Part shown: positions 7,043 through 57,923 of the stretch, one piece after another
How positions within the stretch are numbered: the stretch's first letter is position 1
How the letters are laid out: the number at the start of each line of letters is the position of its first letter
Assembly (NCBI GenBank): GCA_964478715.1
Contig: CAYZIY010000011.1
Span: forward strand, 1,980-65,979
Reading direction: 5' to 3'
DNA: 64,000 bases
Source of the DNA: an uncultured Planctomycetales bacterium
GTDB lineage: Bacteria; Omnitrophota; Gorgyraeia; Zapsychrales; JBDRMG01
Notes under the pieces: generated by a model
Databases searched by the model: none
What the model saw: the letters and a program-made list of their open reading frames with translations, nothing else
What the model was told of the DNA's origin: nothing
Made by a program: the position numbers and the translations under genes

Positions 7043-8080
7043 TTATTCTCTTAAATTAGTTCGGGCGTGTAAATAATTTTCAATAATTTCCCCTATACGG
7101 CGGGCCGCAATCTTGTTTGCTTTTCTGTTAGGATGCGAGTCAGATCCCTCCACCCAAAGGTCGATGTCTTTCCGGCCGTAAAATGACGGGGTCAGATCAT
7201 ATGCCTCAATATCGTATGAAGAAAAAAATCTAAGCATAGTATCATGTATCGGATGAAATGGATGTTTTTCGTCGAGTTTATATAATTTGGGGTAAATCAC
7301 CACAATGAGTTTGAAATTCATGGCCTCCGACATTTTCTTAAAATCAAGAAACGCCTCTTTACACTCTTGAAGTTCTTTCGATTCCGTGCGATAAGGCGTA
7401 AAATATTCGTTTATTGTTGTTTTTGTGAGAATGTGTTTATAGTATGCTGTCCGTATCGTGGTCAACAGCCTTGAGGAATACCATTTCTTTTTCTGTTCAA
7501 TAATATTATCAAGCTCTCTTTTTAGGTCAACAGCGCCGCAATTAGAACAGACATCTGCCGCGCAGTCATTGATCAGGAAGCCTATAATTACCATATCGGG
7601 CTTATAGCGTGATGTGTATTTCCGAAAAAGATCATATTGGAATTGCGTGTCCGCTCCTGGCCGGCCCCCGTTTAAAATTTCTATATCATCCCATCCGGCT
7701 TCATGAAGATACTTTTCCGTCAGCTTTGGCCAGCTGCTGGCGTTGGTCAATTTAAAGCCATAGGTGAAAGAATCTCCCACGGCCAGTATCCGGAATTTTT
7801 CTGTCTGAAGAGGATATTCGGCATCCCGTAAACCCAGAGAGTTGCTTTCTCCTTCCAAGGTCATCCCGTTAAGCACGGATGTTCCAACATCCGATACCTC
7901 AACGTGATTCCAATTATTTGCTCTATCATTCTCTGCATAATGCCAATTGATTGCAATCGGCGCAAATTCAAAAAACCTTAAAATTATTTCTCCAACAAAA
8001 AAAGAAAAGACAAGCGACAAAACGACCAAAAAAGCATTATTGAAAACATATTTCTTATATTTTTTGTTATTCATATTCAT
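7043..8080 (-). CDS. SGNH/GDSL hydrolase family protein (N-terminal membrane anchor)
   Basis: ILAVGDSFTYGF block I motif; N-terminal hydrophobic helix. Confidence 0.6.
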   Translation of the reverse strand: MNMNNKKYKKYVFNNAFLVVLSLVFSFFVGEIILRFFEFAPIAINWHYAENDRANNWNHVEVSDVGTSVLNGMTLEGESNSLGLRDAEYPLQTEKFRILAVGDSFTYGFKLTNASSWPKLTEKYLHEAGWDDIEILNGGRPGADTQFQYDLFRKYTSRYKPDMVIIGFLINDCAADVCSNCGAVDLKRELDNIIEQKKKWYSSRLLTTIRTAYYKHILTKTTINEYFTPYRTESKELQECKEAFLDFKKMSEAMNFKLIVVIYPKLYKLDEKHPFHPIHDTMLRFFSSYDIEAYDLTPSFYGRKDIDLWVEGSDSHPNRKANKIAARRIGEIIENYLHARTNLRE

Positions 8081-24865: not shown

Positions 24866-25627
24866 TTATAAAATCCTTTTCTTCTTTAATCCTATAAGGC
24901 CTAATAAACCGCCCGATAATAATGAAAGGCTTATCGGTTCGGGAACGGCATCGGTTGTCCTTGCTGTTAAAGCCAGAGAACCTCCAAATTCAGCGTTTAA
25001 GAATTCCGGCCAGCTAATATCCCATGGAAGCTCAATTTCTTCATTTTCTAAGATTGCCGGAATGGAATCATAGAGCGCCAAATAGACTTCTCCGCTCTCC
25101 AAGTCGCCATTGATTAGATATCCCCCGATATCATCATCGCCTTCAGAAAGAGGAATTCCGGAAAGGTAAGTTAAGACGTCTTCTTCGCTGGCTCCAAGGA
25201 GTCCGGACAGAGAAAATGTTCCTAGTTCGATACCGGATTCCGAGAAGCTTTCTTCAAAATCGCCTTCCTCATAGCTGCCCTCTGCCCAGAGATCTGCATC
25301 GAGAGTCCAGTCGTAAACGGTATCCCAGTCTGGAAGATTCCAGTCAAATTCATAAGCTACAGCGCCAACGCCGAAAAAAGGACCATGAGAATTAAGCTCA
25401 TCCAAAATTTCAGAATCCATCTCCAACCAGGATTGTGTTTCCAGGTCGGGTCTGCTGTCATAAGGGAAATACCCCGGCTCTTCATCATCCAGCCAGGCTT
25501 CAGGCCCGTAAAGAATACCTCCGAAAAAATCAAGGGTTGAGGTTTGGGCTGATGCTGAGCTGACCATGAAAGCTAAAGCAATAACTGCAAGAATGATACT
25601 TTTCATTCGACCTTTCCTTTCTTTCAT
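24866..25627 (-). CDS. PEP-CTERM sorting domain protein (highly acidic)
   Basis: Signal peptide; C-terminal VPEPISLSLLSGGLLGLIGLKKKRIL. Confidence 0.8.
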   Translation of the reverse strand: MKERKGRMKSIILAVIALAFMVSSASAQTSTLDFFGGILYGPEAWLDDEEPGYFPYDSRPDLETQSWLEMDSEILDELNSHGPFFGVGAVAYEFDWNLPDWDTVYDWTLDADLWAEGSYEEGDFEESFSESGIELGTFSLSGLLGASEEDVLTYLSGIPLSEGDDDIGGYLINGDLESGEVYLALYDSIPAILENEEIELPWDISWPEFLNAEFGGSLALTARTTDAVPEPISLSLLSGGLLGLIGLKKKRIL

Positions 25628-50714: not shown

Positions 50715-52215
50715 GATAAGTAAGTATTTTTTGGTTTTGAATCTGTTCCAGCTGTGATAAATATAAAAGCAGAGGAGGTTTTATCCACCAAATGCTCTTT
50801 CGATAATTTTTACTGACCAAACAATGCATTAACCGTGGAACAATATAGGTGCTTTTAATAAAATGAGATCGCCCCTTCCTGACAAAAAGTAAATAGTATA
50901 AGAGCGACCTTAGAAATTCTGATCGACATGCTTGGGGATCAATACCCATAGCATGCTTTTGTTCAAATGGAATATGGGCAAATTGAGGGTAAGCGTGATA
51001 GATTGTATCTGTATGCAAATTACTGTCCATCCGCACATGAATAGGTAGAGAAGATAAAAATGTGCGCAGATCGAAATCAAGATAGGGGCTGTAAATACAT
51101 GGGATATCGCTTAAAATTGCGTATGGCGATAAACTGATTTCTCGCCTTCTTTTGTTCCAGAAGTAAAAAGAGCTGATCGGATGCGGTGTGTCAACATGAT
51201 TTTTTAGCTCAGAGACCAAATGATCAGTAGCGCAATCGATATGCATACGTTTATAGGATTCCGGAGTTAGTATGAGTTGAGCGATGTCCTCACCCATAAC
51301 CCAGTATTGAAATAATATCTTTGATAGTTCTTTTAAGCGTTCTTCTTTGAAATTTTCAATTTGTTCAGGTACAAATGTTTTCCAATCGCTGCCAAGCCCG
51401 TCGTAAATCAATTTTGTTTTACCTTTGAGAAAATCGGCTAAGATAAGTATCTGGGCATGTTCATCAGTACACATATTGGTTATGAAATTTTTTCTGATTT
51501 CATTTTTGAAGAGCTTCACTTGTTGTTTAAGCGTAATATGCTCTATCTTAAGCTCTGAACATAGGTGTTTTGCAATTCTGACATCCTCATCGGAACGTGG
51601 CGGGTAATGATCATGGGTTACGCAGAATTTCGGTTTATAACCAAGTCTATTGAGTTCTAAGAGAATGTGCCTTGAGTCTCGACCACCGCTTAAAGGAATG
51701 ACAAAATTATTATCTTTTGGCAATCGTCGTTTCATGGACTGCTGGAATAAAGATGCGTATCTATAAACGGCATCATGCCTGGTTATTTGTAGGCATTTTG
51801 TTTGAGCGCACTGTCCTTTTAATACCAAGCCGTCTTTATTCCATTGAAATTTAACAATAGGCGGTAAGGCGCGTATGTATTTAAAGGGAGTATCGTTACC
51901 AATGAAAAAACCTAATCGGATAAATACCGATAAAGCTTTGTAGTCTATTTCACGGGATGCTCCCTCCTCAAATAGCTTCCATATCGACGGTGAGAGGCCG
52001 ATTTCACCATTATGGCAATAGTAATACAGCGGATAAAATCCAAACGGATCGTTTTCAACAGTAAGAGTATTGCCATCCCAATGCCATTTAGCATAGACAC
52101 CATCTGGTTTTTGCCCTGATGAACGGGGAATCTCGTGCCCTAAAAGACAATCAGGAGAGCCTTTTACTTCGAATTGGCCGTTTATTTTTTTTGCATGGAA
52201 ATATGATTTATTCAT
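50704..52215 (-). CDS. asparagine synthase-like amidotransferase (exosortase-locus-associated type)
   Basis: PP-loop IPLSGGRDSRHIL; no N-terminal Cys glutaminase nucleophile. Confidence 0.65.
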   Translation of the reverse strand: MNKSYFHAKKINGQFEVKGSPDCLLGHEIPRSSGQKPDGVYAKWHWDGNTLTVENDPFGFYPLYYYCHNGEIGLSPSIWKLFEEGASREIDYKALSVFIRLGFFIGNDTPFKYIRALPPIVKFQWNKDGLVLKGQCAQTKCLQITRHDAVYRYASLFQQSMKRRLPKDNNFVIPLSGGRDSRHILLELNRLGYKPKFCVTHDHYPPRSDEDVRIAKHLCSELKIEHITLKQQVKLFKNEIRKNFITNMCTDEHAQILILADFLKGKTKLIYDGLGSDWKTFVPEQIENFKEERLKELSKILFQYWVMGEDIAQLILTPESYKRMHIDCATDHLVSELKNHVDTPHPISSFYFWNKRRREISLSPYAILSDIPCIYSPYLDFDLRTFLSSLPIHVRMDSNLHTDTIYHAYPQFAHIPFEQKHAMGIDPQACRSEFLRSLLYYLLFVRKGRSHFIKSTYIVPRLMHCLVSKNYRKSIWWIKPPLLLYLSQLEQIQNQKILTYHDC

Positions 52216-53191
52216 GGCTTGAGTGTTTTTCTAACAATATGTTGCTTTCATTAAGATTCGACATACAAAATATGAATTTTGTTAGAAGAAATCTCCATAT
52301 TTGTCTGTTGATTGGTTTTCGTATCAGCGCTTTACACAAAAGACTTAAAGAATCGCTATATTCACCCGCTTGATACAAACGCGTTGACCAGTGATAATAG
52401 CTTTCAGCCATTAGGTGCATTTTCTCAAAGAACCCCGTGGATAAATCTGGCCTTTCAATATCTTGACACGTGACGTCTTTAAGTTTGTGTTCTCTCGCAA
52501 ATTGGCGCATTCTTTCAGCGGATTGAGTTTGCCTGATACTGCTTGTAATGGAAATAGAATGGAGATTGATCCTTCGATAACACAATAATTGATCCAAACA
52601 AGCAAAGTTTTGGGTTTCCGAAGATCTAAGATAAAAATCGTAATCTGGCGCGCAATACAAGCCATCACGATAGAAATGCACAGATTCAAAATTTATTTTG
52701 CGAAACATAATCGAGCTATGGATAAGCGGATTACAAGACCTGAATGAATTTTTGATATCACTATCGCTTAACGGGGATTTTATTTCTGAAAAAACTTTTC
52801 CATTCTCATTAATCAGATAGCAGTAAGTCGCGCAAAGGGCGATGTCGGGATGTTTGTCTAAGAATTGAACTTGTTGTTCCAATTTTTCTGGCATCGCGAT
52901 ATCATCCGAATCGAAATTGGCAATGTACTTTCCTTGCGCATGAGAGATCGCTGTATTGCTGGCTGTGGCCGGACCAAGATTTTGATCGTGCCGAAATACT
53001 TTGATTTTTTCAGGATACTTTTGTTCATAATCTCTGGCGATTTTAAGGGTTTTGTCTTTTGAGGCATCATCAACGATAATTAACTCAAAATCCTGAAATG
53101 TCTGAGACAAAAGGCTCTCAATGGCCTCTCTCATGAACCTCGAGGCGTTATAGGCTCCCATCACTACGCTTACTTTTGGTTTTTTCTCCAT
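52208..53191 (-). CDS. glycosyltransferase family 2 with C-terminal extension (divergent paralog C)
   Basis: KVSVVMGAYN...IIVDDASKDKT, DSDD; C-terminal YYHWSTRLYQAGEYSDSL block shared with paralogs A/B. Confidence 0.75.
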   Translation of the reverse strand: MEKKPKVSVVMGAYNASRFMREAIESLLSQTFQDFELIIVDDASKDKTLKIARDYEQKYPEKIKVFRHDQNLGPATASNTAISHAQGKYIANFDSDDIAMPEKLEQQVQFLDKHPDIALCATYCYLINENGKVFSEIKSPLSDSDIKNSFRSCNPLIHSSIMFRKINFESVHFYRDGLYCAPDYDFYLRSSETQNFACLDQLLCYRRINLHSISITSSIRQTQSAERMRQFAREHKLKDVTCQDIERPDLSTGFFEKMHLMAESYYHWSTRLYQAGEYSDSLSLLCKALIRKPINRQIWRFLLTKFIFCMSNLNESNILLEKHSSHE

Positions 53192-53216
53192 GGCTGTTTC
53201 CGTTTATTCAACAATC

Positions 53217-53247
53217 CTGGCCAAGTCTTTATCCAGAAGCTCCTGAT
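53217..53247. repeat. 31-bp direct repeat (left copy), 29/31 identical to 54640-54670
   Basis: tggccaagtctttatccagaagctcctgatt vs tggccaggcctttatccagaagctcctgatt; corresponds to the 3' coding end of the SNase-fusion gene. Confidence 0.6.
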
Positions 53248-53276
53248 TTAGCAACCATCCGTAGGCCAGAATTTCT

Positions 53277-54419
53277 TTACATAAAGCGTCTTGGACTACT
53301 CCAGAGCTGATCAAGGAAGTTTTTCCAGGGAAGTATTTTAATCCCCTGAATAATTCTCGGCCGTTTTTCCAGGCACGCAACGACATAATGCTTGATTCTT
53401 TTCTCTTCTTTGAGCGCCTTCATTCCTCTTAGGTCTCTTGGAGAGATATTGCCCTTTGCCTTGGCTTCCACGGCAAGGTTGTCATTTATTATAAAATCAA
53501 CCTCGTATCCGGATTTGGACCGCCAATAATGAAGATCGCCCAAATTATGATAGTCGACAAACGTTTTCAGCTCGTGCGCCATATATGTCTCAAACGCGTC
53601 TCCGAATTCCGGCGACTTTTCTTTTATTTCCGGCCGATTTTGCAGGTATCGCACCACCCCTGCGTCGAAAAAATAAAATTTCGCGGTTGAAGTGGGCTTT
53701 CGTTTTTGACTCTTTTTCCATGCCGGGACATCAAACCCGATAAGTGTATCGCGCAAAATCTGAAAGTACTCCTGGACCGTACTGGCGGGTACCTGGGCGT
53801 CATTGGCTATATTGGCATAATTGATCAACAAGCTGTTGCAGGCGGCCGCAACCTGCAGAAACCTGCTGAATGCCGGGACATTTCTGACCAGTCCCTCGGC
53901 TGCGACCTCTTCTTTTAAATAGTTTCCGGAATAGGCCTTCAAATCCTGCTCAGGGGAGTCAGAAAAATAAATCGAAGGAATCAAACCGTTATTCAGCGCT
54001 TTGCGTAAATCGAATTTTTCCTTAAGTTCACGGTAAATAAACGGATGCAGGTTTGCCGAACGCGCCCGGCCGCCCAAAAGGTTGACGCCTCCTCTGCGCA
54101 GTTTTCTGGCGCTTGATCCTGTCAACAGAAAATGAATTCTTTGCTTTTCAATAATCCGATGTACTTCATCAAGCAGAAAAGGTAATTTCTGAATTTCGTC
54201 AATTATAATGATCTTTTCTTTGGACCGTATTTCCTGTTCAAGCCTTTTTGGCTCGCGGCTTAAAGTCAAATAGATATCGTTGTCCAAGAGATCATAGACG
54301 CGGAATTGTTTCAAGCTATGGGCTATCAGCGTGGATTTTCCCGTCTGCCTCGCGCCAAAAAGAAATAGTGACTTGCTCTTTAACGCTTTTAGGACGTCAA
54401 TCTGACGGTCGATATACAT
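53277..54419 (-). CDS. AAA+ ATPase with C-terminal DUF4143 / PD-(D/E)xK-like domain (COG1373 family), second copy
   Basis: Walker A GARQTGKST, Walker B IIIDEIQ; C-terminal GYEVDFII...VEAK. Confidence 0.7.
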   Translation of the reverse strand: MYIDRQIDVLKALKSKSLFLFGARQTGKSTLIAHSLKQFRVYDLLDNDIYLTLSREPKRLEQEIRSKEKIIIIDEIQKLPFLLDEVHRIIEKQRIHFLLTGSSARKLRRGGVNLLGGRARSANLHPFIYRELKEKFDLRKALNNGLIPSIYFSDSPEQDLKAYSGNYLKEEVAAEGLVRNVPAFSRFLQVAAACNSLLINYANIANDAQVPASTVQEYFQILRDTLIGFDVPAWKKSQKRKPTSTAKFYFFDAGVVRYLQNRPEIKEKSPEFGDAFETYMAHELKTFVDYHNLGDLHYWRSKSGYEVDFIINDNLAVEAKAKGNISPRDLRGMKALKEEKRIKHYVVACLEKRPRIIQGIKILPWKNFLDQLWSSPRRFM

Positions 54420-54538
54420 AAAATCCTCCTAGGTTAAATGACATATATGTTGTTGATTATCATGACATACAACGATATAGTTGTCAAATAAAATATGCTT
54501 AAAATTATCCTCGATCTCCATTCTTCTGTTTTTATCCA

Positions 54539-54610
54539 GGGACATACCCCGAATCAGGTAAAGGTGTGTCCCTCAGGGGTCATACCAACACATAAATCGG
54601 GGTATGTCCC
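54539..54610. repeat. 72-bp palindromic element (14-bp perfect inverted arms gggacataccccga / tcggggtatgtccc with internal sub-repeats)
   Basis: Read directly; lies between the ATPase gene and the right-hand direct repeat. Confidence 0.6.
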
Positions 54611-54625
54611 TGAGCCTGAAGTAGG

Positions 54626-55435
54626 TTACTCCACTATTCTGGCCAGGCCTTTATCCAGAAGCTCCTGATTGAGAAGGCGACCATGGCTTAAAATTGTTTC
54701 TTTATCCGTCTCCCCTTTCAAATACCAGAGATCCACAATGTAGCGGCCGAATTTGCCGGCTTTATACGAGCGGATAACAACACCGCCCTCAGAGAGGCAA
54801 TCCTCGACAAATACTTTGGCTTGGCCGCCTTTTTTCGTCCCTTTTTCCGGGCAGTTAATGCCCCGCAAACGCACTTTGTGCTCCATTTTGGCCTTGAAAC
54901 CGACATCGATATCAAGAACAAGCGTGTCGGCATCAACAACCCGGGCTACCTGTGCCGCATAGGTATATAATTTTTGGTTAAGATCTCTGAGCCGGGGCCC
55001 GTCATTTTTGTTTGTGGCCCCGGCTTCACATCTGTTTTCGTAATAATTATTGCGGATTCTCAATCGCAGTTCATGTGAGCTCCACTGATTGAGCGCGGCA
55101 CTTTGGATATAGAAGGAGCGCTCTTTTCTGTCGGCCACATACAAAAGGGCGGCATAATGCGACCAATTCAGCGGATGTCCCTCGATTTCATCTTTAAATC
55201 CGTCCGGATATTGCCGGAAAAAACGAACGCATTTTTCCAGCGTTCCTCTGGATGCGCCCGCATCGAGCGCGATATTCTTAATGACTTCTCCGCTTTTACG
55301 GGTGTAACCATAAACAGACTCTCCGATGATCCAGTAGGCATTGAGCGTCTGAAGACGCTCATCATCGTTAGCTGTGTACTGCTCGACTTTCTCCAGTCTT
55401 TTTTGAATATCTTTAACTAGTTTTTGATAAGACAT
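54626..55435 (-). CDS. nuclease-domain fusion protein: YhcG/DUF1016-like N-terminal domain + staphylococcal nuclease (SNase/thermonuclease) domain
   Basis: C-terminal VVDADTLVLDI...KVRLRGINCPEK SNase catalytic signature; N-terminal ~130 aa resemble the DUF1016 N-domain (uncertain). Confidence 0.55.
   Translation of the reverse strand: MSYQKLVKDIQKRLEKVEQYTANDDERLQTLNAYWIIGESVYGYTRKSGEVIKNIALDAGASRGTLEKCVRFFRQYPDGFKDEIEGHPLNWSHYAALLYVADRKERSFYIQSAALNQWSSHELRLRIRNNYYENRCEAGATNKNDGPRLRDLNQKLYTYAAQVARVVDADTLVLDIDVGFKAKMEHKVRLRGINCPEKGTKKGGQAKVFVEDCLSEGGVVIRSYKAGKFGRYIVDLWYLKGETDKETILSHGRLLNQELLDKGLARIVE
54640..54670. repeat. 31-bp direct repeat (right copy) at the 3' end of the SNase-fusion gene
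   Basis: See left copy. Confidence 0.6.
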
Positions 55436-55456
55436 AAGACGCAGAATGCTTGAATG

Positions 55457-56071
55457 CTAAAGCAAAATATGTTCAAGTTTTCTTTTTACGCATAAACGAA
55501 TTTTATCGTCTTTTATTTTCCTGACCCACGTACGAGCTGATTTAAAACAAAATTTTTTTCCTAAATACAGCTCCGGAAAATGACCAAATTGTTTCTTTTT
55601 TCTTGTGGATAAATATAAACAATCAACTAATGCCTTCTCCGGCTCAGCTATAAGGAATTTCCCCGTCTTTTTGTACCAGCTGAAACCCTGGAAAAATTCA
55701 GGACATATTTTGTGAATCTGAAAAGTTCCCAAAGAGGTGCTAACGGATCGACTATGAGCGGTTGAAGCCAAAGTGATAACTTGTGGTATTTGCTCCACAA
55801 TGCCGTGAAGGTGCAAGGCGCTCAGGAAAGAGACATAGGCGCGGTGTTTATCAAACAAGAGAGGTATCATTTGATAGGGGCTTACATTTCGTTGATCCCC
55901 TTGGGACCATACGCCTCTGTAAACACGCTGAACCAATCCCTGTTTTTCTAAGTGAACCAATGACTGATTGATAGCAGACGCGGATTTTCCTGAAAGAGAC
56001 ACAAGTTCTCTAGTCGCAAATACAGGTCTCTCTATTTTCTTAATAAAAAACATTAAAGACCGTTTCTCCAT
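55457..56071 (-). CDS. AbiEi-family antitoxin-like transcriptional regulator (type IV TA)
   Basis: N-terminal wHTH-like segment; immediately downstream of, and co-oriented with, an AbiEii-like gene. Confidence 0.45.
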   Translation of the reverse strand: MEKRSLMFFIKKIERPVFATRELVSLSGKSASAINQSLVHLEKQGLVQRVYRGVWSQGDQRNVSPYQMIPLLFDKHRAYVSFLSALHLHGIVEQIPQVITLASTAHSRSVSTSLGTFQIHKICPEFFQGFSWYKKTGKFLIAEPEKALVDCLYLSTRKKKQFGHFPELYLGKKFCFKSARTWVRKIKDDKIRLCVKRKLEHILL

Positions 56072-56075
56072 ATCA

Positions 56076-56852
56076 CTATCCCAATTCTTCTAAAAAACCA
56101 ATTGTTTTTAATTTGATTTCATCCCAGTTATTTTCATTAGTGTACAAAGATTGATCTTCCGCGCTGAAATAAGCGACGACTGAATCTCGAAATTGTTCAT
56201 AGCTGACTTGATACACATTTTCCGAAGCTTTTTTCAATTTATCCGGGTTGACTTTGAGTTTTCCCTCTATCTCGGAATCATATTGTGAATTCAGAATATA
56301 CAGATCGAAAATATCCCTGGCCTGAAGCTCTTTGCGGTTTATCAGGGCATCAATTTTTTGTGTGATGGCCGATGAAATTTTGTAATGGGATATTAATAAT
56401 GGCGCCAATCGATAATGCCGGAGAATGGAGCTGGAGACAGATTCAACTTCTGCTTGGCCGCGAAAGCCCCTCCGGGAAAACTCAATTTTTGTAAACAAAT
56501 CTTCGCCTGAGGAGTTCAACAAATGAATCTTAAATCGTTGCGTTGTTTTTGTTTGTTTAGCGTATTTCATATCAGGCGGAATCAACCGCTCAACACCAAA
56601 CGAATTCAGTATGTCATGAAATGAAGCCGCGGTGAGAATATCCATGACAGTATCTTTGATTTTGTAAACCGCAATATCGCAAATATCCAGATCCATATCT
56701 TCTGAGTAGCGGAAGCTTTTAAAGAAAAATCTTAAATTTGATCCGCCTTTAAGCGCGAAGAAACTCTGCTTAACTTTCCTGGAAAACAGCCGAAGGAATT
56801 CCAGATGAAAGATTTCTCGTAAATCCAGATTATTGTATGATTTTGCGTTCAT
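56076..56852 (-). CDS. AbiEii/AbiGii-family nucleotidyltransferase toxin
   Basis: LKGGSNLRFFF...SEDMDLDI pol-beta-like NTase motifs (GS...D.D). Confidence 0.55.
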   Translation of the reverse strand: MNAKSYNNLDLREIFHLEFLRLFSRKVKQSFFALKGGSNLRFFFKSFRYSEDMDLDICDIAVYKIKDTVMDILTAASFHDILNSFGVERLIPPDMKYAKQTKTTQRFKIHLLNSSGEDLFTKIEFSRRGFRGQAEVESVSSSILRHYRLAPLLISHYKISSAITQKIDALINRKELQARDIFDLYILNSQYDSEIEGKLKVNPDKLKKASENVYQVSYEQFRDSVVAYFSAEDQSLYTNENNWDEIKLKTIGFLEELG

Positions 56853-56969
56853 ATAATGTATTATAACTTAGTTATGACTAAACAACAACGCATAATTAAA
56901 ATTATTATATATTCATTATGTTCAGGGACAACCATTTATCTGGTTCAGGATACGTCGCTGGTCTTAATT

Positions 56970-57923
56970 TTATCTATTTTCCATTTCGCGAAAGCATTTC
57001 ACCGTATATCTAAGACCTTCCTCAAAATTGACCAGAGGTTTATATCCGATAACCTTACCCGCCTTCGAAATATCCGCATGGGTTTTAAAGACATCGCCGG
57101 CGCGGACATCTAGATGCTGAGGTTTGATATCTTTTCCGATGATCTGATTAAGCAGATCAACGAGTTCTAAGACGGTATGATCCCTGCCATTGGCTACATT
57201 GAGAACCTCATGCTTGATGCCGGGTGTGGTGGCGGCCAGGATATTGGCTGAGACAACATTATCGATATAAGTGAAATCGCGCGACTGCTTGCCGTTTCCG
57301 AAAATCGGCGGTTGCTCATCATTGAGAATACTGGTCGTGAATTTGGGAATCACGACCGCATATTCATCATCCAGGGCCTGCCGGGGGCCGAAGACATTGA
57401 AATAGCGAAGGCACACGGTCTCAACGCCAAAAAATTCGGCGAAGATCCGGCAGTAATATTCGCCGGTTAATTTAGATAGCGCATAGGGCGAAATCAGTAG
57501 CGGAAGCTGATCCTCTTTTTCGGGGAATTGATCCGTATCGCCATAAATCGAACTGGATGAGGCCAGAACAAACCGTTTAACCTGATGCTTGGCGGCCGCC
57601 TGAAGCATAAAGAGCGTTCCATCGATATTGACATGATTATAGGTCAGCGGATCTTTCATGGATTTGGGCACTGAGCGCGCCGCCGCCTGATGCAGTACAT
57701 AATCAATGCCCTCGCAGGCCTTGTCGCACACCAGAGCGTCACGGATATCGCCGCGGATCAGTTCGAATTTTTCGATGGATAATTTTTTAGCGAAAGCAAG
57801 ATTTTCTTCTTTTCCGGATGAAAAATTATCCAATACACGGACAAAATCATCACCCTGAATTAGTTTCTCAGTGATATTGGAGCCGATGAACCCGGCTCCC
57901 CCTGTGACGAGATAACGTGCCAT
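56970..57923 (-). CDS. NAD-dependent epimerase/dehydratase (UDP-sugar 4-epimerase, WbpP/CapD-like)
   Basis: TGGAGFIGSN Rossmann motif, YALSK catalytic dyad region. Confidence 0.8.
   Translation of the reverse strand: MARYLVTGGAGFIGSNITEKLIQGDDFVRVLDNFSSGKEENLAFAKKLSIEKFELIRGDIRDALVCDKACEGIDYVLHQAAARSVPKSMKDPLTYNHVNIDGTLFMLQAAAKHQVKRFVLASSSSIYGDTDQFPEKEDQLPLLISPYALSKLTGEYYCRIFAEFFGVETVCLRYFNVFGPRQALDDEYAVVIPKFTTSILNDEQPPIFGNGKQSRDFTYIDNVVSANILAATTPGIKHEVLNVANGRDHTVLELVDLLNQIIGKDIKPQHLDVRAGDVFKTHADISKAGKVIGYKPLVNFEEGLRYTVKCFREMENR

Follow-up and report, generated by a model that had tools for sequence, protein, structure and literature searches.

Defence and toxin-antitoxin genes build up at chromosomal hotspots that carry no mobility genes, and how they do so is poorly understood. 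A 64,000-nucleotide (nt) stretch of contig CAYZIY010000011.1, from an uncultured bacterium of the Omnitrophota and hereafter called the window, raises this question at a single gene. The window carries an intact gene for a nuclease in which DUF1016_N and SNase domains are fused, and the end of this gene is found a second time downstream, on the far side of a gene for a COG1373-type ATPase. How did one nuclease gene come to have two ends, and how did the ATPase gene come to lie between them? Our analysis suggests that the downstream copy is probably the displaced 3′ end of an earlier nuclease allele, left behind by homology-anchored recombination that brought in a new gene end together with the ATPase gene.

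A preliminary description of this DNA reported a 31-bp direct repeat at 53217-53247 and 54640-54670, and the two copies indeed match at 29 of the 31 positions. A repeat search lengthens the pair to 48 nt at 85% identity (53204-53251 and 54626-54673), with a start-to-start spacing of 1422 nt. It contains a perfect 22-nt core (CTTTATCCAGAAGCTCCTGATT) that occurs exactly twice in the 64-kb window, against no occurrences expected from shuffled sequences. The downstream copy extends further still. We built a profile hidden Markov model (HMM) from 23 members of the nuclease family and searched it against all six-frame pieces of the window. Positions 255-278 of the model align to 53278-53207 (E=3.5e-4), and the intact gene is the sole other match in the window. 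The downstream copy comprises the 24 final codons of the nuclease gene and a stop codon. At the protein level this orphan tail reaches the ATPase stop codon, and its first codon shares 2 nt with the TAA. The 31-bp copy itself had been described as overlapping the 3′ end of the ATPase gene; it sits 30 nt past the stop codon (53277-53279). On its other side, only 12 nt separate the stop codon of the orphan tail from the start codon of a glycosyltransferase gene. A 60-residue open reading frame (ORF) at 53204-53386 resembles the nuclease family in its last 24 residues only, the rest overlapping the ATPase gene in another frame, and it is not a gene. The segment 53204-53278 is a gene fragment, neither a regulatory nor a mobile-element repeat.

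The two tails have diverged in the manner of coding DNA. They are identical at 57 of 75 nt (24% divergence), and their codons divide into 12 identical, 9 synonymous and 4 non-synonymous. When substitutions were simulated at random, none of 5000 trials gave so few non-synonymous codons. The orphan tail keeps its frame and its stop codon and retains all conserved residues but one, in what is the most conserved segment of the nuclease family (invariant L255, N256, Q257, L259, D261 and A265). Because the two tails differ mostly at the synonymous level, the orphan may derive from a once-functional nuclease allele. The divergence is unevenly distributed: the 5′ third of the two tails is only ~50% identical and the flanks of the core are otherwise 50-73% identical, and a perfect run of 22 nt has a probability of 0.011 given 18 differences over 75 nt. 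Among the family members with comparable tails, the one closest to the orphan is the nuclease gene of the window itself (18/24). We also considered whether the core is palindromic. It holds only a 12-nt near-palindrome that results from the NQELLD codons and is not conserved in the family, in which the consensus at this position is NQVLLD with varied codons.

The ATPase gene that separates the tails is complete, and its distribution suggests a widely travelling solitary gene. Its family is very large and highly conserved: over 7970 database proteins match at E<1e-40, and the closest of them is 83% identical. The 83%-identical homologues align over the full length and end in LWNNPRRFI, and the window protein ends in LWSSPRRFM. 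Read-through of the ATPase into the remnant after loss of a stop codon was rejected, since these homologues stop at the same position and the C-terminus is thus native. Near relatives occur in unrelated contexts: beside recQ, beside a phosphofructokinase gene, and between mgsA and a cysteine-synthase-like gene. At the DNA level the homologue loci resemble the window between the −35 box (54487) and a point inside the stop codon (53278), and none of them beyond; in one of them (L031) the homology starts at 54487. The sharply bounded unit (53277-54487; L024, L029, L031) comprises a conserved TTGACA-17-TGATAAT promoter, a ribosome-binding site and the ORF, and its identity across unrelated contexts and phyla (72-75% for DNA, 83% for protein) is unusually high for a solitary gene. 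No duplicated ends of neighbouring genes were found around the ATPase homologues in the unrelated contexts (L024, L029, L031), so the scar belongs to the nuclease gene rather than to the ATPase gene. No recombinase is encoded between the repeats, where the ATPase gene is the only ORF with family matches (Pfam, PADLOC).

The scar recurs. We compared ~27 distinct related Omnitrophota loci, the window counted, and the family profile detected orphan ends of the nuclease gene in six of them (window, L003, L010, L038, L047, L037). Beyond the window, these are five orphan tails (two in L003 and one each in L010, L038 and L047) and one orphan head (L037). The insertion-type arrangement suggested at the outset thus recurs in related genomes with other cargo. 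The cargo differs between events: the ATPase gene, an MNT and HEPN pair, GT2 and PMT_2 genes, an HTH_3 gene with a Fic-like remnant, and a PIN module. The orphan tails are 19, 21, 24, 29, 32 and 63 codons long, their divergence ranges from 0% to ~40%, and the inserts span 54 nt to 3.1 kb. No frameshift or internal stop codon interrupts any of the seven orphans. The spacers between the duplicates are unrelated foreign sequences and not tandem repeats. Every orphan tail sits between cargo and the next gene, which it abuts in the window, L003 (copy c), L038 and L047 (from a 4-nt overlap to 12 nt); the L010 orphan lies ~280 nt from the next gene, and L003 copy b lies ~140 nt before a cargo gene.

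The individual cases illustrate this variety. In L003 (identical to L018) three tails stand in series: copy a ends the intact gene, copy b follows 54 nt later, and copy c 3.1 kb later, after GT2 and PMT_2 glycosyltransferase genes and 11 nt before the next gene. Copy b is a clean mosaic that agrees with c in its 5′ half and with a in its 3′ half; the perfect runs are 32 and 35 nt long, a pattern seen in fewer than 1 in 5000 trials. The codon differences between a and c are 16 synonymous to 7 non-synonymous, and 0 of 5000 random trials gave as few non-synonymous ones. In L010 a 21-codon orphan follows an MNT/HEPN pair, which is 89% identical to a pair in L011 that has no orphan. The L010 orphan ends in AQKME, as does the sister allele in L023, and the intact L010 tail ends in AYTVE; the two L010 tails differ by 11 synonymous and 4 non-synonymous codons (0 of 5000 random trials) and share no identical run above 6 nt. 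A copy of a widespread GTCATTCCCGCGCAGGCGGGAATCC hairpin repeat lies just 3′ of this orphan (L010:2340-2385). In L038-L041 the interval between the intact gene and a 19-codon orphan is ~100 nt long and holds no gene, and the next gene starts 4 nt after the orphan; orphan and intact tail differ by 12 synonymous and 4 non-synonymous codons (0 of 5000 random trials), again with no identical run above 6 nt. Both this case and copies a and b of L003 enclose only a gene-free spacer of 54-100 nt. The L047 orphan is 63 codons long, and its final 159 nt match the intact tail without a single difference. Ahead of it lie an HTH_3 gene and a decayed Fic-like gene, with copies of a repetitive extragenic palindrome (REP)-like element on either side. 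Two such GC-rich hairpins (containing GGGGTKAGGGGGAGGGCC; L047:6885-6935 and 7920-7965) flank the cargo between the 159-nt tail repeats. In L037 the fragment is a head instead of a tail. This orphan comprises the first 38 codons (80% identity, with a 24-nt perfect run) and is followed by a PIN module and then by the intact gene. A Y1_Tnp gene (IS200/IS605- or RAYT-like) adjoins this head and the PIN module (L037:4621-5841), and weak Y1_Tnp matches also precede the nuclease gene in L042-L046.

The surroundings of the nuclease gene are similar across the loci. The family has 110 homologues, essentially confined to Omnitrophota metagenome-assembled genomes, the nearest 64% identical to the window protein. 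The shared order is polysaccharide export, Wzz-like, ParA-like, 23S-IVP, epimerase and nuclease genes, followed by variable glycan genes or a wzm/wzt-type transporter, and the nuclease gene adjoins the epimerase gene in many loci. The nuclease gene is a conserved anchor at the border between the conserved and variable parts of the Omnitrophota polysaccharide locus, and toxin-antitoxin and defence-candidate genes gather at this border. In the cargo-free loci (L001, L008, L035, L048) the distance from the nuclease stop codon to the next glycan gene ranges from a 4-nt overlap to ~25 nt, and the 12-nt junction between the orphan and the glycosyltransferase gene in the window resembles this tight native junction. 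Elsewhere small self-promoted modules lie on either side of the nuclease gene: AbiE, DUF6036 pairs, MNT/HEPN, PIN, HicAB, HTH/Fic-like, and one or two COG1373 ATPase genes. Most of this cargo has no flanking tail (L011, L013, L019, L006, L016). A low-coverage 2.5-kb contig (L023:1-2512) has the appearance of a circular permutation or a tandem when compared with L011:7003-8578. It opens with 474 nt that match the 3′ part of AbiEii and closes with 876 nt that match AbiEi and the 5′ part of AbiEii, which leaves a gap of only ~227 nt between its ends. The nuclease gene and the AbiE pair may form a ~2.7-kb circle or tandem here, or the contig may be an assembly artefact. In L021 (5989-6827) the nuclease gene is frameshifted into two ORFs and is likely a pseudogene in that lineage.

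We propose that these observations reflect the displacement of gene ends. The donor DNA in the window event would have been a related nuclease allele with its own complete tail, followed by the ~140-nt palindrome spacer and the self-promoted AAA_14/DUF4143 ATPase module. Donors with a nuclease-ATPase gene order exist, because L019 and L004 show a 57%-identical ATPase gene directly 3′ of the nuclease gene, where neither palindrome nor remnant is present. Homology within the nuclease gene would anchor the recombination, and the non-homologous far end of the donor, at the ATPase stop codon, would join the resident gene ~24 codons before its stop. As a result, the nuclease gene would remain intact with the ATPase gene as its new downstream neighbour, and the old tail would be stranded directly before the glycosyltransferase gene that was once its own neighbour. 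The pathway could be homology-facilitated illegitimate recombination (HFIR) or an equivalent single crossover. A join past the stop codon would remove the first part of the glycan gene, which abuts so closely, and would not persist, and joins just inside the nuclease gene would leave a harmless short orphan, which would therefore be short and usually abut the next gene. In the window, the start of the orphan falls exactly on the ATPase stop codon, and the orphan's own frame and stop are preserved, which speaks for this proposal. The G+C content at third codon positions (GC3) of the nuclease and ATPase genes is nearly equal (0.50 and 0.51), compared with 0.38-0.41 for the AbiE genes and 0.35-0.41 for the AbiE and glycan genes together; this agrees weakly with a common history of the two genes. 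The preliminary description held that an insertion had regenerated the 3′ end of the nuclease gene. Its outline holds, in that the ATPase gene lies between an intact and a displaced tail, which indicates that DNA came in and that a new gene end took the place of the old one; the site-specific mechanism, one of the two it offered, is not supported.

Several points weigh against the displacement of an older allele. No close relative of the window was found (nearest nuclease 64%), none of the 110 homologues carries the orphan's tail as an allele, and neither a parental allele nor a true empty site was found for the window. For the latter, the cargo-free loci L035 and L048, in which the nuclease gene abuts the glycan gene, provide an equivalent at the level of the family. 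The synonymous bias is weaker than its P-value suggests, since selection on the intact tail after a local duplication would give a mixed pattern too. The perfect 159-nt repeat in L047 indicates that tails can be identical at birth, which fits local duplication or the integration of a circle. The 22-nt core and the mosaic copy b of L003 point to crossovers inside the tails, which HFIR alone does not require, and the palindrome has no role in the model. Finally, no epimerase orphan ends were found in the 11 loci with an epimerase gene, window included, and pure HFIR does not predict this. The restriction of the scars to the nuclease gene may reflect where cargo lands or a faster turnover of nuclease alleles (40-64% identity, versus ~75% for the epimerase). 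Crossovers within tails also occur (the window core, the L003 mosaic and the L047 repeat), and later gene conversion is possible.

The within-tail crossovers are the natural starting point for a different explanation, in which a circular cassette of nuclease tail, palindrome spacer and ATPase gene integrated by a Campbell-type single crossover in the 22-nt core. Both the intact and the orphan tail would then be hybrids, and recombination between them could excise the circle again. A perfect core within flanks of much lower identity fits this, as does the mosaic in L003, which is expected from two insertions that share one attP-like tail; the L047 repeat and the apparent circular permutation of the nuclease and AbiE genes in L023 are also in its favour. 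However, the gene-free duplications in L003 (a-b) and L038 would require circles of ~140-160 nt carrying no gene, L010 and L038 offer no identical run above 6 nt for the crossover, no circular junction was observed, and most cargo beside the nuclease gene has no flanking tail. We consider the circle unlikely, although for the cases that carry a gene it deserves to be kept in mind. A plain partial duplication had been named as the alternative in the preliminary description: slippage or unequal exchange would have copied the last ~25 codons, the copy would have diverged, and the ATPase gene would have been inserted later and independently. That the tail nearest to the orphan is that of the window's own gene agrees with this, and so do the gene-free duplicates in L003 (a-b) and L038 and the perfect, seemingly fresh duplicate in L047. 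The scenario fits the window poorly, however. An orphan with 24% nucleotide divergence has kept its frame, its stop codon and all conserved residues but one; a ~50% identical 5′ third next to a perfect core is not uniform decay; the spacers are foreign and unrelated rather than tandem repeats; and the exact coincidence of the ATPase stop with the start of the orphan is expected if the end of the ATPase gene was the junction, and is otherwise chance. Local duplication therefore seems distinctly improbable.

Site-specific integration, one of the mechanisms first put forward, would make the 22-bp core an att site and possibly the palindrome an attC-like structure. The recombinase would be encoded elsewhere or be the nuclease itself, and the element would supply the gene end. 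Direct repeats that bracket an insert and a regenerated gene end do recall attL and attR in gene 3′ ends, the insert contains a strong palindrome, and one gene has been targeted repeatedly. On the other hand, no integrase or recombinase gene lies between the repeats, and the core is not conserved, the family sharing NQVLLD in varied codons with L010 and L038 lacking a core altogether. The junctions are spread over 19-63 codons, with one of them, the L037 head, at the opposite (5′) end of the gene, duplications without cargo exist (L003 a-b, L038), and the palindrome is unique to the window, lies upstream of the ORF and is absent from the same gene pair in L019. We regard this mechanism as very unlikely. 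Retention of the orphan for a function addresses a different question. The orphan could provide the translation-initiation context of the glycosyltransferase gene or serve as a substrate for programmed deletion of the ATPase gene. Orphans usually lie 0-12 nt from the following glycan gene, like the native junction (with the exception of L010, at ~280 nt), and all seven are free of frameshifts and internal stops. A role in translation initiation, however, would need just the last few codons and no conservation at the protein level, no start codon or ribosome-binding site makes the orphan a gene, direct repeats permit only an irreversible deletion, and a function would account for retention but not for origin. 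The chance that function explains the orphan is minimal. Displacement of an older allele's end remains the reading that we prefer for the window and its relatives.

The palindrome between the nuclease and ATPase genes had been given a part in the insertion. Its perfect 14-nt arms (54539-54552 and 54597-54610) are real and extend to 36 nt at 78% complementarity; its part in a cassette site is not borne out. As RNA it folds strongly, with a minus-strand energy of −47.7 kcal/mol (z=−6.6) and a plus-strand z of −6.9, and it is far more stable than the regions 3′ of other nuclease genes (z=−7 versus +1.2 to −4.4). An attempt to assign the RNA strand through the asymmetry of G-U wobbles allowed no inference, since both strands fold about equally (−47.7 versus −50.9 kcal/mol). 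A scan for intrinsic terminators did not call the hairpin, which is followed on the sense strand by GGAUAAAAACAG and no U tract, and an Rfam scan of 53000-57200 gave no match at E≤1. A search for further copies found the palindrome once in the window, and none in L001-L023 or in viral contigs. The spacer that carries it gave no alignment to the four ATPase homologue loci compared, and the ~140 nt from the nuclease stop codon to the ATPase promoter, palindrome included, are outside the travelling ATPase unit. The palindrome is not a feature downstream of other nuclease genes and is absent where the nuclease-ATPase pair recurs (L019). Because it is outside the conserved unit and not a feature of the family, it does not argue for a cassette recombination site. 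The sole other near match to an arm in the window (25464-25477, GGGAAATACCCCGG) has 2 mismatches and no partner arm and is probably due to chance. In an unrelated genome, a 78-nt AT-rich imperfect palindrome lies ~80 nt upstream of an ATPase promoter (L024:1670-1747); it is similar in size and position to that of the window and unrelated in sequence, and may be a coincidence.

The whole region is transcribed from the minus strand, in the order epimerase, AbiEii, AbiEi, nuclease, a 206-nt spacer, ATPase and glycosyltransferase, followed by a long run of glycan-synthesis genes (Table 1). The AbiE pair (55457-56852) splits the epimerase and nuclease genes, which are neighbours in many relatives, and we take it as separate cargo placed between them. 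Homologues of this pair (51-57% identity) lie in L013 on the other, downstream side of the nuclease gene. PADLOC assigns the ATPase to the phage-defence candidate PDC-S01 (E=5e-52) and the N-terminal half of the nuclease to PDC-S02 (E=3e-18). Both are candidate families only, and their function is putative. With the AbiE genes, these matches suggest that the segment from 53.2 to 56.9 kb is a small cluster of defence and toxin-antitoxin genes. A sequence search of solved structures returned no match for the nuclease or the ATPase, and a search of viral contigs for relatives of the nuclease returned just two distant SNase matches.

Table 1. Features of the nuclease-ATPase region, with positions in the window
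Feature	Position	Strand	Evidence and remarks
Family-2 glycosyltransferase gene	52208..53191	-	Pfam PF00535 E=4e-39
Orphan nuclease-gene tail, displaced 3′ end (favoured reading), left repeat copy; KEILAYGWLLNQELLDKDLARIVE, then stop	53204..53278	-	family HMM E=3.5e-4
22-nt perfect core, left copy	53227..53248		exact count in window
ATPase gene, AAA_14 + DUF4143, COG1373 type, 380 residues, complete	53277..54419	-	PF13173 E=5e-21; PF13635 E=2e-30
Sigma-70-like ATPase promoter, TTGACA-17-CATGAT with TG; left limit of conserved unit	54459..54487	-	promoter scan; aligns with homologue promoters
Imperfect 76-nt palindrome, 14-nt perfect outer arms	54537..54612		repeat search and folding; starts 13 nt after nuclease stop
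3′ tail of intact nuclease gene, right repeat copy; ends KETILSHGRLLNQELLDKGLARIVE, then stop	54626..54700	-	repeat search, tail alignment
DUF1016_N + SNase fusion nuclease gene, intact, 269 residues	54626..55435	-	PF17761 E=1e-14; PF00565 E=9e-7
22-nt perfect core, right copy	54649..54670		exact count in window
AbiEi-family antitoxin gene	55457..56071	-	PADLOC AbiEi E=2e-24; NCBIfam TAA_AbiEi below cut-off; weak Pfam AbiEi_4
AbiEii-family nucleotidyltransferase toxin gene	56076..56852	-	Pfam PF08843 E=8e-15; PADLOC AbiEii; GC3 0.41
Epimerase gene	57923-56970	-	

If displacement is correct, orphan gene ends would be natural footprints of defence and toxin-antitoxin genes trapped beside a conserved gene without mobility genes, and the same nuclease gene would have been reused as a homologous anchor for different cargo in an uncultivated phylum. 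A profile of the last 25-60 codons of the gene could serve as a searchable signature for dating and counting such events. For the window, the practical result is a re-annotation of 53204-53278 and of the 60-residue ORF at 53204-53386. A bolder idea is that the ends of the nuclease gene are a dedicated landing pad, with modules carrying a fragment of the gene as a homing arm or with the nuclease cutting near its own gene ends and thereby stimulating capture. We give this very little credence. If true, defence clusters at the margin of the polysaccharide locus would be assembled on an integron-like platform that needs no integrase, and the palindrome would be a capture structure.

How does the locus compare with known systems? 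The ATPase and the N-terminal half of the window nuclease match PDC-S01 and PDC-S02, and both genes sit in one cluster with AbiE. PDC-S02 is YhcG-like, and YhcG proteins carry a PD-(D/E)XK nuclease domain; the window protein shares DUF1016_N with the DUF1016/YhcG-like proteins but has SNase as its C-terminal half. Islands that are flanked by att sites in the 3′ ends of tRNA or protein genes likewise have direct repeats around the insert, which supplies the replacement 3′ end. They encode an integrase and always use one core, whereas here an identical 22-nt core is present at both ends but there is no integrase, and neither the core nor the junction is constant across insertions. Integron cassettes resemble the locus in that small one- or two-gene units gather beside one conserved gene and the insert contains an imperfect palindrome. 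They differ in that here IntI and attI are missing, the palindrome is upstream of the ORF and not repeated with each cassette, and the cassettes are self-promoted. No palindrome was found 3′ of the ATPase ORF, where the orphan starts at the stop codon, and the genes scanned gave no match to an integrase family. In Neisseria, minimal mobile elements (PMC3787668, PMC3082526) are different whole-gene cassettes between conserved flanks that are exchanged without mobility genes, as here, but they use two homologous flanks and leave no duplicated gene ends.

Two further comparisons are closer. HFIR, described by de Vries and Wackernagel (2002) and Prudhomme et al. (2002) as cited in PMC5361080 and also treated in PMC3240628, combines one homologous anchor with one illegitimate junction near the end of the homology, and this geometry would account for short orphans of variable length and for foreign DNA trapped beside a conserved gene. 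HFIR was defined experimentally in transformable bacteria, whereas here it is read from scars in uncultivated Omnitrophota. A route of ‘C-terminal displacement’ with HFIR has been proposed for rhs, for orphan cdiA-CT/cdiI modules and for the immunity-gene arrays of the Vibrio type VI secretion system (T6SS) (Kirchberger et al., 2017, PMC5361080, which cites Jackson et al., 2009 and Poole et al., 2011). As in these rhs, contact-dependent inhibition and T6SS loci, truncated 3′ fragments, there and probably here from older alleles, stand after an intact gene in the same orientation, with accessory genes in between and no recombinase, and arrays arise from successive events, as the three serial tails in L003 would have done. 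The window shows the corresponding features, namely a truncated copy in the same orientation and foreign DNA between the copies, and the family adds variable junctions and the L003 array. In those systems, however, the displaced part is a polymorphic toxin domain with its immunity gene. Here the nuclease is non-polymorphic, its displaced part is the segment with the highest conservation, and the cargo consists of genes unrelated to immunity genes (ATPase, toxin-antitoxin pairs, glycosyltransferases) or is absent. The locus records a recombination footprint of a known kind and not a new kind of mobile element; its interest lies mainly in the recurrence of this scar, with varied cargo, around one conserved and non-polymorphic nuclease gene.

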